17,383 bases of DNA from Escherichia coli (GCF_003334255.1 NZ_QOWU01000075.1), one strand, 5' to 3'. Shown: positions 1 through 17,383, counted from the first letter of the stretch. The notes: a model not told the origin generated them from the sequence alone. A program made the numbers and translations.

Positions 1-77
1 AATCGGTGGAGCTGCATGACAAAGTCATCGGGCATTATCTGAACATAAAACACTATCAATAAGTTGGAGTCATTACC
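1..77 (+). mobile_element. IS1 terminal fragment (insB-proximal end, truncated by window edge); 23-bp terminal inverted repeat at 55..77
   Basis: Positions 55..77 (atcaataagttggagtcattacc) are the reverse complement of the IS1 terminal repeat ggtaatgactccaacttattgat. Positions 3..62 translate in frame as SVELHDKVIGHYLNIKHYQ-stop, which matches the C-terminus of IS1 InsB as I recall it. Perfect reverse-complement match to 17307..17383. Confidence 0.85.
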
Positions 78-78
78 C

Positions 79-192
79 AGTGAAACGACTGCATTTCAGG
101 AACGCTATGATTTTAATATCGATGAATGGCGGGCAAAATTCAGGCAGTTATGTTTAGAGTATTTTGGCGATAGTCGTACACAGTTCACTTAA
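79..192 (+). pseudogene. 3' remnant (37 codons plus stop) of a plus-strand gene truncated by the IS1 insertion; identity unknown, convergent neighbour of nuoN
   Basis: Open frame begins immediately after the IS1 end and runs to TAA at 190..192 (SETTAFQERYDFNIDEWRAKFRQLCLEYFGDSRTQFT). No start codon or ribosome-binding site, as expected for a gene whose 5' part is displaced by the IS. Identity not recognisable from 37 residues. Confidence 0.45.
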
Positions 193-225
193 CGCTCTGC
201 GTCTATCTACTATCCCTTCTTTTTC

Positions 226-251
226 AGAAAAACCGCCGAGCATGTCGGCGG
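226..251 (-). terminator. Rho-independent terminator of the nuo operon
   Basis: GC-rich 7-bp stem (233..239 ccgccga pairs with 245..251 tcggcgg) with 5-nt loop. On the minus-strand transcript it is followed by a U-run (complement of agaaaaa at 226..232). Lies 25-50 bp downstream of the nuoN stop. Confidence 0.7.
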
Positions 252-275
252 CTTTCTGACTTACAAAGTAACAGA

Positions 276-1733
276 TTACATCAGCGGCATTGCCAAACGC
301 ACAATGCTAATCAGCGGTTGTGGCCATACACCCAGCACCAGTACCAACAGTGCAGAGATCAGCACAACGATACCGCCCGCGCTGTACTGCCAGTTTGATG
401 GTGCATCGCGACCCGGTTGTTCCGGGGCGTGAAGATACAGGCTCACCGCCACGCGCAGGTAGTAGTAGAGGCCGATTGCCGAACCGACAACCACGGCACC
501 CACCAGCCACCACAAGTGTGCCTGGACACCGACCGCCAGCACGTAGAACTTACCGATAAAGCCCAGCGTCATCGGGATACCGGCCAGAGACAGCATCATC
601 ACCGTCATCACTGCCGCGAGGATCGGACGATGCCAGAACAGACCGCGGTAAGAGAACAGGGAATCAGCATCCGGGCCACGATACGGGCTGGACATCAGGC
701 TGACCACGCCGAACGCGCCGAGGCTGCTGAACAGATAACCGGCCAGGTAAACCCCTACCGCTTCCATCGACATCTCGCCGGTTTGCAGCGCAATCAGCGC
801 TACCAGCAGATAGCCGAGGTGAGAGATAGATGAGTAACCGAGCAGACGTTTGATATTGGTCTGGCTCAGCGCCATCAGGTTACCGAAGATGATGGAGGCA
901 AAGGCGATAATCGCCAGCACCACGCGAATCGCTTCGCTGTCACCCACCGGTGCGTAGAGGAACAGACGCATCACCACACCGAAGATAGCGATTTTGCTCG
1001 CCGTCGCCAGGAAAGTGGAAACCGGCGCAGGCGCGCCCTGGTATACGTCTGGCGTCCACAGGTGGAACGGCACCAGAGAGAGTTTGAAGCCGAGGCCAAC
1101 AATCATCAGGCCGAAACCTGCCAGCAACAGCGGCTCGTTGAGCATACCGTCGCCAAGGTTTTTACCCAACGCGACAAACGACAGGTCGCCAGACTGCGCA
1201 TACACCAGCGCCATACCAAACAGCAGGAAAGAAGACGCTGCGGCAGAAAGGATGGTGTATTTGATACTGGCTTCCAGTGAACGTTTCTGGCGGAAAGCGT
1301 AACCGACCAGGCCAAACAGCGGCAAAGAGATCAGTTCGATACCGAGGAACAGAGACGCCAGATGGTTGGCATTCGCCAGCAGGATCCCGCCCAGCGCGGC
1401 AATTAACACCAACAGGTAGAACTCATCCTTGTTGTCGTTATAGCCTTCAAGCCACGGGTAGGCGAAAGTACAGGTGGCGAGGCTCGCCAACAATACCAGC
1501 CCGGTGTAAAGCATGGCGAAACCATCAACGCGCATCAGCGGCGTAACGTCCATAGCGCCCGCCTGGCCAACAAACCAGAGCGAAACCAGCGCCGCGTTAA
1601 GCCCAATAACCGAGAGCGTAGCGTTGAGGAAATGATTGCGTCGCCACGCAATGGAGAGCATCACAACCACCACCGTCAAGCCGACGATCAGCAACGGTAG
1701 CAGTGCGATCAGGTTTTGTGGAGTTATTGTCAT
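276..1733 (-). CDS. nuoN: NADH:quinone oxidoreductase subunit N (membrane arm, antiporter-like)
   Basis: 485-aa ORF, highly hydrophobic multi-pass membrane protein, last gene of the nuo array; length and sequence match E. coli NuoN. Confidence 0.95.
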
Positions 1734-1739
1734 GGCGAT

Positions 1740-14841: not shown

Positions 14842-14856
14842 CTTAATGCCTCGCGG

Positions 14857-15300
14857 TTAGCGTTGACGATTAGCGATACTGTTCGTTTCCGGGTTCATAC
14901 GCTCGCGGCGTGAACGCGCGGGCGTCCAGTCCAGCGCGCCAATACGCACCAGATAAACCAGACCTGCCAGTAACACAAAAATAAAAATTGCAGCTTCCAC
15001 AAAGCCTACCCAGCCGCTTTCGCGGATAGAGGTTGACCATGCGAACAGATACAGCGCTTCAACGTCGAAGATAACGAAGAACATGGCCACCAGATAAAAC
15101 TTGGCGGACAGGCGTAAGCGGGCGGAGCCGACCGAGTCGATACCGGATTCAAACGGCACGTTTTTCGACCTCGCGCGTGCGCGACCGCCTAAAAACCAAC
15201 CGCCTACCAGCATCAGGCAACACAGGCCAATGGCAACGATAAGAAAGATAGCGAATGCCCAGTGATGAGCGATGACTTCAGTGGATGTTGACATACTCAT
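14857..15300 (-). CDS. nuoA: NADH:quinone oxidoreductase subunit A
   Basis: 147-aa three-helix membrane ORF starting [14 protein letters not shown]; first gene of the operon, matches E. coli NuoA. Confidence 0.95.
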
Positions 15301-15847
15301 TGCTTACTCATCAAAAGTAGCGCCAGATTCACTGCTCTTCACGGCAGATGGACGCCACATCGATTCATGGGGAGGAATAAAAAAAACCTTACAATCACTG
15401 TAGAAATTCTTTTATACAGCTAATTGATGTGGTTTTTTACTCCTTTCTATAACCTTTTGTCAACTTTAACAAAAGTTTCTTCACATTAGTTTACATAATA
15501 TCAACACCATTAGCATTTAATGCCCTTTCACCCCAGATCCTTGACGACTCCAGGATAATTAGATGTTGTTGAATCGTGTCCGTTGTGAAGCAATGGAAAA
15601 AATACGGGTCTATTTTGACAGGAATTTGTGTCGATTCCTCCCCCCAAAAGAGAGTATTTTCTTGATCTGTGACACGCTTTTGTCATTCCATAACAAAAAC
15701 GCAGCAACAAATTTACGTATTTTTTAACATCATTGTAGCAGGTGATTTTTTTCAGGCGATTATTTGTGCGTTCGGGACGTGAATCTCTGGTGGTTGAAAA
15801 ATGAACAGTTTTGTACGTTCTGCACTATGCGATGAAGGATTTTTACT
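15301..15847 (-). promoter_or_regulatory. nuo operon promoter and regulatory region (long AT-rich leader/upstream region)
   Basis: About 550 bp AT-rich non-coding DNA directly upstream of nuoA. In E. coli this region carries the nuo promoters and sites for global regulators (ArcA, NarL, FNR, IHF, Fis, by established knowledge). I did not map exact -10/-35 hexamers. Small palindromes are visible at 15621..15638 (ggaat-N8-attcc) and 15670..15685 (tgaca-N6-tgtca). Confidence 0.6.
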
Positions 15848-15894
15848 AAAAAAAAGCCGCTGGGGTTTAAAACACCCCCAGCGGCTCGTTTTTT
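15848..15894. terminator. Bidirectional rho-independent terminator downstream of lrhA
   Basis: Perfect 10-bp stem (15856..15865 gccgctgggg pairs with 15876..15885 ccccagcggc) with 10-nt loop, flanked by an A8 run (15848..15855) on one side and T6 (15889..15894) on the other. This gives a U-tract on either strand. About 45 bp past the lrhA stop. Confidence 0.8.
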
Positions 15895-15930
15895 ACACTA
15901 TTGTCTCAGGAATTATCTATCGTCCGTCGA

Positions 15931-16869
15931 TTACTCGATATCCCTTTCAATCAACAATGAATCATCCCCTTCCGGAGCAGACATTGGGCTGTATTGCCAC
16001 GGATTATGGTAGCTCTCCATCGCCTGATAGATCACCTGGGCCAGCTCATTATTACTGGACGGATCATAGCACAGCAAATATTCGGTATCAGGTAGCGGCG
16101 GTAAGCCATCTACTCCACTCAGCACACGCAGGTCCGGGCTCATCATCTCAACCGGCCTTGCCGTCACGCCAAGACCGGCTTTCACTGCCGCACGAACGGC
16201 CGGAAGCGTCGAGGCGACATAAGCCAGTCGCCATGGAATATCTGCTTTATTAAGCGTCGCCAGCACCATATCGCGAAACGGGCTAGGATCATCCAGCAAT
16301 ACAAGAGGGATCGGCTCGCCTTTTTGCAATATGTATTCCGCTGCGCAGTACCAGTGTGTTGGCGAGGTACGCAGGTTCAATGCCTTAAACGCTGAAGGAC
16401 GATGGGTGGTTACCATCAAATCCACTTCCTGGGATTCCAGCATTTCTGCCATATAGGCATTACGTTTAACGCGGACATCCAGCGCTAATTTCGGATAAAC
16501 CGAACTCACGCGATTTAACAGGAAAGGTAAGATCGTATCGGCAGATTCATCTGAAGCACCGATAGTTAATACGCCCTGAAGATTACTGAACATTAATGAT
16601 GAGCAGGCCTCATCATTAAAACGCAGGATTTTCCTGGCGTAACCAAGAAGTTGAATGCCATGTTCAGTTAACAGTTTGTTGCGACCGTGACGAGCGAACA
16701 GTTCTTTCCCAACGAGTTGTTCCAGACGCTGCATTTGCTGACTTACGGCGGACTGAGTACGACACACAGCGGCAGCTGCGGCAGCAAAAGTGTTCAGATC
16801 GGCAACAGCAACAAATGTTCTCAGCAGATCGAGGTCGAGGTTAATTATCGGACGATTTGCACTTATCAT
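15931..16869 (-). CDS. lrhA: LysR-type transcriptional regulator LrhA (repressor of flhDC and motility genes)
   Basis: 312-aa ORF with N-terminal LysR-type helix-turn-helix region ([40 protein letters not shown]) and substrate-binding-like C-terminal domain; conserved position upstream of nuoA as in E. coli. Confidence 0.93.
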
Positions 16870-17306
16870 ATATTATCACTTACTGGCGGCTCATACTGAG
16901 CTGGTTAATGCTGTGCACACACAAACAAGCAATTCCATTTGTAATGTGCCTCCCTGGCAGTTTCATCCGGAACCCGGACGAAAGTAAAAATGCATATGAG
17001 TTGCACTAAAAAAGCGACTCACATTGTTCCGTTATAATGCCTGAAGTAGATCACAGAATATATCTTCAGGGATCGCATATCTATTAAGTTACTCACTCTT
17101 TTCTATTTATGACATGCGCGTGTTTGTATAAATGTAAATGTGAGTCCTTGTTCCACTCTCGTGCAGCATCGCTGGTCATACGCGAACACGTACCAACAGC
17201 AATGGTGAGGCGGCATCAAGAGCAGGGATCCGTCATTTATCCGAGCATTTTACCCCAAAAACCTTTTATTTATAAGGGTCATTGCGAATTATCTGATGCA
17301 AAGTTA
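16870..17306 (-). promoter_or_regulatory. lrhA upstream or leader region, interrupted at its distal end by IS1
   Basis: 437 bp AT-rich non-coding sequence between the lrhA start codon and the IS1 end. No convincing ORF. Promoter elements not mapped. Confidence 0.45.
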
Positions 17307-17383
17307 GGTAATGACTCCAACTTATTGATAGTGTTTTATGTTCAGATAATGCCCGATGACTTTGTCATGCAGCTCCACCGATT
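17307..17383 (-). mobile_element. IS1 terminal fragment (insB-proximal end, truncated by window edge); 23-bp terminal inverted repeat at 17307..17329
   Basis: Starts with ggtaatgactccaacttattgat (IS1 terminal repeat). 17307..17383 is the exact reverse complement of 1..77, and the minus strand of 17322..17381 encodes the same InsB C-terminus. Confidence 0.85.

Follow-up and report, generated by a model that had tools for sequence, protein, structure and literature searches.

Introduction

IS1 insertions, IS1-flanked segments and contigs broken at insertion sequence (IS) copies are routine in Escherichia coli and carry little biological weight by themselves. Pairs of IS1 bracket composite transposons, with inverted copies flanking the heat-stable toxin transposon Tn1681 and direct copies flanking Tn9. 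As simple insertions, single copies generate target duplications of 8-9 bp (PMC12428005). IS insertions that derepress motility have been described upstream of flhDC and in lrhA (lrhA::IS3 in ER1821R and lrhA::IS1 in F022; PMC4982283, PMC8092126), and laboratory and gut-evolved strains readily acquire insertions within lrhA (PMC4982283, PMC8092126, PMC12332998). Here we analyze a 17,383-nt stretch of E. coli DNA (GCF_003334255.1, contig NZ_QOWU01000075.1, positions 1 to 17,383; hereafter the window), in which the nuo operon for respiratory complex I and the regulatory gene lrhA lie between two inverted IS1 ends.

Our reading, which we hold with considerable confidence, is that the window is a fragment of a K-12-like E. 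coli chromosome bounded by an assembly break at two real IS1 junctions, that these junctions were made by ordinary IS1 transposition, and that the segment between them keeps its native orientation. The phenomenon is already known, being ordinary IS1 biology at an assembly break. To the initial annotation of the window, made from its sequence, we add that a one-step replicative transposition gives the same geometry as two insertions and that the likely functional consequences are a truncated yfbP and an lrhA promoter cut off at about -66. A mildly interesting question is the adaptive value of promoter-proximal lrhA IS1 insertions in natural E. coli.

Results

Two IS1 right ends terminate the window

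Positions 1-77 and 17307-17383 form a perfect inverted repeat of 77 nt (100% complementary, with the arms 17,229 nt apart), found both by repeat search and by direct reading of the two ends; the search returned one other inverted pair in the window, of 22 nt and 86% match, and no further pairs. Chance cannot account for a perfect inverted repeat of this length within 17 kb. Both arms are identical at 77 of 77 positions to positions 692-768 of the 768-bp IS1 annotated in E. coli C21 ('IS1-like element IS1A family transposase'), a part of the element that encodes the C-terminus of InsB (...SVELHDKVIGHYLNIKHYQ*) and includes the right terminal repeat (IRR), GGTAATGACTCCAACTTATTGATAGTG. Because the 77-mer corresponds to IS1 692-768, both arms are the insB-proximal (IRR) end, and both copies of IS1 read into the window. 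The left arm (1..77, plus strand) runs left to right, and the right arm (17307..17383, minus strand), the exact reverse complement of the first, is the 3' 77 bp of a second copy running right to left, each cut by the assembler. Both the repeat search and the C21 match agree with the initial annotation, which had described the terminal 77 bp as exact reverse complements and as inward-facing insB-proximal IS1 ends, and which had also correctly read the inner 9-mers cagtgaaac (78-86) and gcaaagtta (17298-17306).

The inner edge of each arm is the true IS1 terminus, and the outer edge is an arbitrary position within the element. For the insertion allele in yfbP described below, the IS1 overhang is 77 bp here, 128 and 116 bp in an NCBI assembly and 25-27 bp in Logan assemblies. 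Since the overhang varies among assemblies of the same allele, the arm length is technical and set by the assembler. The contig would come from a de Bruijn-graph short-read assembly and would stop where unique sequence enters the multi-copy IS1; a unique edge into the repeat would end at the first k-mer wholly within it, leaving 77 bp on each side if k = 77. This is a usual value in SPAdes and a common largest k. The earlier proposal that the contig was broken at a multi-copy repeat with k-mer overlap is therefore supported by the assembler-dependent overhangs (25-128 bp). Because the contig continues for a whole k-mer inside IS1 with no branching at the junction, both insertions were probably fixed, or nearly so, in the culture that was sequenced. 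A perfect terminal inverted repeat of k-mer length is characteristic of contigs broken at a pair of inverted repeats in a de Bruijn graph, and such a repeat should not be taken for the ends of a mobile-element or viral genome; here the arms are cut IS1 ends and the content is core chromosome.

The interior matches K-12 without a mismatch

When compared with E. coli K-12 MG1655, the 17,229-bp interior (78-17306) is collinear and gap-free, with 0 mismatches. It contains the 3' 113 nt of yfbP, the genes nuoN to nuoA, and lrhA together with the 437 bp that precede it, which confirms the earlier observation that the whole complex I operon and lrhA lie between the arms. The yfbP remnant (78..190, plus strand), severed by IS1, retains 37 codons and the stop and has 0 mismatches to the K-12 gene (18768-19616 in our K-12 reference sequence, L003). 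The nuoN-nuoA operon (276..15300, minus strand) is complete and intact, with all 13 genes supported by open reading frames (ORFs), K-12 annotation and the absence of mismatches; it is untouched by both insertions. lrhA (15931..16869, minus strand), encoding the LysR-type repressor of flhDC, is an intact K-12 allele with a 312-aa ORF, identical to the K-12 lrhA region.

Guanine-cytosine (GC) skew on the plus strand is negative across the whole interior, which fits the normal placement of nuo and lrhA on the leading strand in the K-12 map. The GC content is 55.5% in nuo, 43.5% in yfbP, 39% in yfbN, 38% in the lrhA-alaA spacer and 32% in the local 50 bp at the right insertion site. IS1 prefers AT-rich DNA, and the low GC of the target regions fits this preference.

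The left IS1 copy interrupts yfbP

At the left junction, K-12 reads ...GGATAATGTC|CAGTGAAAC..., and IS1 lies after nt 734 of the 849-nt yfbP, oriented toward nuoN. The nine bases CAGTGAAAC at 78..86 of the window, present as a single copy in K-12 (L003 19502-19510), are the inner copy of the target-site duplication. We predicted beforehand what the outer-left side should yield, namely a 9-bp duplication with read-through into the left terminal repeat (IRL) of IS1, giving the protein YfbP(1-247)+TVMLPTY. Exactly this product is on record in NCBI assembly GCA_965136505.1, in Logan ERR271233 (in a contig found in 19 samples) and in ERR1948968. The partner-junction contigs (L018, L019 and L020) end ...GGATAATGTC CAGTGAAAC | GGTGATGCTGCC, the last being the IRL of IS1, and the same 9 bp thus abut IRR in the window and IRL in these contigs, as expected of an 8-9 bp target duplication. 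The unique part of the partner-junction contig is 100% K-12, with the remainder of yfbP as the outer-left flank; all carrier contigs are <2 kb, and none spans the whole IS1. Since the IRL-side junction occurs with its 9-bp duplication in public E. coli short-read assemblies, the left IS1 is a genuine insertion.

By exact search, the left junction is absent from 5,426 complete E. coli genomes and from IMG/VR, and the ORFs that span the inner-left and inner-right junctions (42, 61, 91 and 92 aa) had no match in protein records. The insertion likely deprives YfbP, a protein of unknown function, of its last 35 native residues, and the disrupted copy would consist of residues 1-247 followed by a 7-residue tail.

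The partner junction comes from an IS1-rich natural lineage

The partner-junction contig (L018 1-128, 129-1852; L020) begins with another IS1 IRR end, inside yfbN. This yfbN insertion (K-12 L003 17788-17796) points the same way as the copy in yfbP, and in ERR1948968 both of its junctions are on record with a 9-bp duplication, GGCATCTCC (L034 1-35 for one side); the lineage is one with at least three IS1 copies within 19 kb. An adjoining 3.7-kb contig (L034) carries two single-nucleotide polymorphisms (SNPs) in yfbL (K-12 L003 15550 and 16458) that are absent from K-12 and from the 5,426 complete genomes. This lineage is a natural K-12-like E. coli and not K-12 itself.

Two other origins were considered and rejected. 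A K-12 laboratory strain or DH10B is not the simplest reading in view of the two private yfbL SNPs together with the reciprocal yfbP junction, and Shigella is rejected on the 0 interior mismatches to K-12 together with the partner-junction protein, which was deposited as Escherichia coli. Of the hosts first proposed for the window, Shigella or some E. coli lineages, the second part therefore stands, as a K-12-like E. coli, and the first falls.

Within the same region, yfbN also carries IS1 at K-12 17692-17699 and 17719-17727 (L021, L026, L028, L032), and another sample has an IS1 of opposite orientation at the 17788-17796 site. In the ERR1948968 lineage the yfbL gene call is 306 residues long instead of 323.

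The right IS1 copy lies upstream of lrhA

The right junction falls in K-12 sequence ...GCAAAGTTA|TGTTATGTT..., between L003 36730 and 36731, within the 919-bp lrhA-alaA spacer and 437 bp upstream of the lrhA ATG, with IS1 oriented toward lrhA. The presumed 9-bp target, GCAAAGTTA (17298..17306), is seen in its inner copy only, at the point where K-12 continues TGTTATGTT. A simple insertion would give an outer junction reading GTTGGCAGCATCACC-GCAAAGTTA-TGTTATG (that is, IRL|GCAAAGTTA-TGTTATG). Like the left one, the right junction is absent by exact search from the 5,426 complete E. coli genomes and from IMG/VR.

The lrhA 5' untranslated region (UTR) has been reported as 371 nt long (PMC10578931), and this length places the transcription start site at about 17240 and the IS1 boundary at about -66. 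The stretch 16870..17306 (minus strand) would thus hold the 371-nt UTR and 66 bp of retained promoter DNA. Putative hexamers were read by eye at 17252-17247 (TAAAAT, -10-like) and 17275-17270 (TTATAA, -35-like), and neither junction gave a strong hit when scanned for consensus promoters and terminators. The lrhA coding region, its UTR and, judging from the inferred start site, probably its core promoter would be intact, with the DNA further upstream displaced by 768 bp.

In TraDIS of EC958, Tn5 insertions in the intergenic region upstream of lrhA are strongly enriched among hypermotile cells (PMC5425062). Separation of lrhA from its upstream DNA would probably knock down its expression and raise motility and fimbriation. 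The right-hand copy resembles the motility-derepressing insertions cited above in being an IS at the lrhA locus, but differs from them in its position at about -66, which leaves intact the lrhA reading frame, the 371-nt UTR and what is presumed to be the core promoter, so that any effect would be regulatory.

Two ordinary insertions probably account for the window

Considered as simple insertions of an IS1A/IS1R-type, 768-bp IS1, the two copies show no difference in kind from others described. Their terminal 77 bp are identical to the known element, the left copy has a 9-bp target duplication, the targets are AT-rich and the sites resemble those occupied in many other E. coli genomes; they are unlike them in that both positions are found in 0 of 5,426 complete E. 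coli genomes and that only the ends of the element are visible. In the most likely history, ordinary transposition brought IS1 into AT-rich sites prone to insertion, a 9-bp duplication arose at each, and nuo-lrhA kept its native orientation.

Several points weigh against this account. The presence of a full-length IS1 at both ends is inferred from the 77 bp of each copy visible in the window; the IRL-side junctions of the yfbP allele extend 116 bp into the element. Assignment of the window to the lineage of the partner-junction contigs (L018-L020) draws on one shared insertion allele. No ORF crosses the outer-right junction, and a scan of JGI metagenomes for it was negative, as was the inner-right positive control, which leaves that scan uninformative. 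Local intramolecular events, and not independent hops, could have produced the three IS1 copies found within 19 kb, and read-through from IS1 toward lrhA could raise lrhA expression instead of lowering it.

Orientation of the nuo-lrhA segment

To compare possible histories we write the reference as A-t1-S-t2-B, with t1 = CAGTGAAAC and t2 = GCAAAGTTA. If IS1 entered the two sites independently, the result is A t1 [IRL..IRR] t1 S t2 [IRR'..IRL'] t2 B. One-step intramolecular replicative transposition from either copy gives A t1 [IRL..IRR] t2' S' t1' [IRR'..IRL'] t2 B, an arrangement that homologous recombination between the copies also produces. Four junctions (A t1|IRL, IRR|t1 S, S t2|IRR' and IRL'|t2 B) are common to the native and inverted states, and because all four IS-end/flank junctions are shared, the window is identical in both. 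The initial annotation had proposed that the partners of the 9-bp duplications at the junctions would reveal an inversion; this does not hold, since the junctions are the same in either state and only sequence spanning a whole IS1 discriminates between them. IS-bounded inversions are accordingly invisible to short-read junctions in general, with native and flipped states sharing every junction sequence.

A segment turned around between its IS1 copies, either by one-step intramolecular replicative transposition or by later recombination of independent inverted copies, would leave nuo and lrhA head-on to replication. We consider this unlikely, though it has real arguments in its favor. The inverted IS1 pair that an inversion requires does flank the segment, and the geometry is exactly as predicted, with inverted copies and the same end (IRR) inward. 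IS1 and Tn9 are among the elements that make deletions (by attack in cis) or inversions (by attack in trans) through intramolecular target-primed transposition (PMC9330008). The genome of E. coli C21 supplies a clean example 1-3 kb from the left junction of the window (L002 421-4077), where yfbM'-yfbN-yfbO is inverted between inverted IS1 copies with their IRL ends inward, in the order ...16663 [IS1] inverted(16655..18775) [IS1] 18767..., and the 9-bp duplications (K-12 16655-16663 and 18767-18775) are exchanged between the copies. This inversion is like the arrangement studied here in its inverted copies, in having the same end inward and in its chromosomal neighborhood, and unlike it in that a complete genome shows both the flip and the swapped duplications, whereas the window is known from junctions alone. 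In EEC_W5 a yfbL-yfbM block is likewise inverted between inverted IS1 copies, a structure that needs more than one IS1-mediated event. The negative GC skew of the interior, which fits nuo being normally on the leading strand, means that a flip would be a real change.

On the other side, many lineages have acquired IS1 independently in the regions where the two sites lie. As the present lineage is also rich in IS1, the proximity of two copies is weak evidence for a joint origin. The geometry [IS1>] yfbP-nuo-lrhA [<IS1] is found in C21 too, where the insertion sites are different and nuo is native relative to alaA, and connectivity across the IS1 copies is not visible in the window or in public contigs. 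Taking orientation as a question of its own, we judge that the nuo-lrhA segment is probably native. The EEC_W5 locus (L001 3310-6438) has in addition lost 424 bp, covering the 5' end of yfbK and the spacer between yfbK and yfbL, as well as 1.2 kb containing yfbN.

IS1 recurs in the lrhA-alaA spacer

Among the 5,426 complete E. coli genomes, 32 carry an IS1 in the spacer upstream of lrhA (about 600-680 bp surveyed). IRR faces lrhA in 14 of these and IRL in 18, which rules out the orientation bias that could have hinted at promoter capture. In a mapped sample of 12 genomes (L005-L016, K-12 L003 36697-36971), 11 have simple insertions with 8-9 bp duplications, each at its own position. Three mapped insertions lie 0-5 bp from the boundary seen in the window: those of EC19 (identical boundary), EC65 (2 bp) and SB0258h1 (5 bp). 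The EC19 element is an IS1 variant that faces the other way and is flanked by the 8-bp duplication CAAAGTTA. Further copies lie 206 bp (C21) and 3 bp (EEC_W5) upstream of the lrhA ATG. If insertion were uniform, about 8 genomes would be expected to carry one (at about 10.7 IS1 per chromosome) versus the 32 observed, a rough 4-fold ratio that is uncorrected for shared ancestry; the hot-spot excess upstream of lrhA is modest.

It is conceivable, if doubtful in our estimation, that the right IS1 belongs to a class of recurring and possibly selected promoter-proximal lrhA insertions that tune LrhA and hence motility, fimbriae and RpoS, in a lineage that may also have nuo-lrhA flipped head-on to replication. 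What suggests such a class is the finding of at least 14 mapped positions in both orientations, with four independent events, that of the window included, within 6 bp. If real, the class would resemble the known IS hot spot upstream of flhDC.

The twelfth mapped genome, H1 (L006 2841-4635), differs from the others in that its spacer IS1 is joined directly to corA, the right flank having been lost by rearrangement. On the K-12 map corA is far from lrhA, and this IS1 marks a breakpoint of a large chromosomal rearrangement.

Composite transposon, assembly artefact and adjacent deletion

The geometry of the window had also been called composite-transposon-like, and the inverted IS1 pair flanking the segment is indeed there, as it would be if IS1-nuo-lrhA-IS1 were, or had been, a composite transposon moving as a unit. 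The mobilized unit is what fails, and we find this origin highly improbable. The segment stands at its native locus, with the interior collinear with K-12 and the rest of yfbP as the outer-left flank, and no foreign insertion site is seen. A unit at a new location within a single outer duplication was not found, and plasmid and phage collections held no IS1-bounded nuo unit. Plasmid matches came to 20 records, led by multi-hundred-kb to Mb chromosome-like records, and the best of them, the one inspected (365 kb, CP137936.1, L004), has the native context without IS1. The window thus shares with composite IS1 transposons such as Tn9 and Tn1681 the bracketing of a DNA segment by two IS1 copies, but differs from them in being core chromosome in its native place, with no second location or unit-level target duplication found.

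CP137936.1, although filed as a plasmid, contains the native yfbM-nuo-lrhA-alaA-yfbS region and is probably a chromosome fragment. Three short records without annotation, titled 'Salmonella phage S.Kent 1-2-1' (OR851019.1, OR850973.1 and OR851494.1), make up the phage matches, and these are pieces of the Salmonella nuo operon.

The terminal repeat could be suspected of being an assembly artefact (a chimeric or hairpin contig), with one or both sites free of IS1, given that the arms are as long as a typical k and that the contig stops exactly where they do. We hardly credit this, as the joins between IS1 and flank occur at single defined bases of the true IS1 terminus, other assemblies contain the partner junction of the left site and so give it independent confirmation, the right site is within 0-5 bp of IS1 insertions in other genomes, and two IRR junctions are not obtainable from a single IS1.

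Nor does it seem at all probable that the left junction is an IS1-mediated adjacent deletion from a nearby IS1, as in the DH10B lineage, with elaD through most of yfbP lost: adjacent deletions by IS1 are classical (PMC9330008), in the DH10B family an IS1 of the same orientation (IRR toward nuo) lies 7.3 kb to the left, in the rbn-elaD interval, and the interior is identical to K-12/DH10B, but such a deletion would have eliminated the yfbP 5' sequence along with yfbO and yfbN, and it is largely refuted by the reciprocal junction yfbP(1-743)|IRL, which exists with its 9-bp duplication in a contig that retains yfbO and part of yfbN, and by the lineage not being DH10B, as the two SNPs of the adjoining contig, absent from K-12 and the complete genomes, indicate. 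In DH10B and its derivatives (L017 5310-6077), the IS1 at the rbn 3' end points toward nuo, and the annotated Rbn protein is altered.

A single Rfam match was obtained in the window, the nuoG RNA motif (RF01748, 50.3 bits) at 10401-10443 on the minus strand, in the nuoF-nuoG interval where enterobacterial nuo operons are expected to have it.

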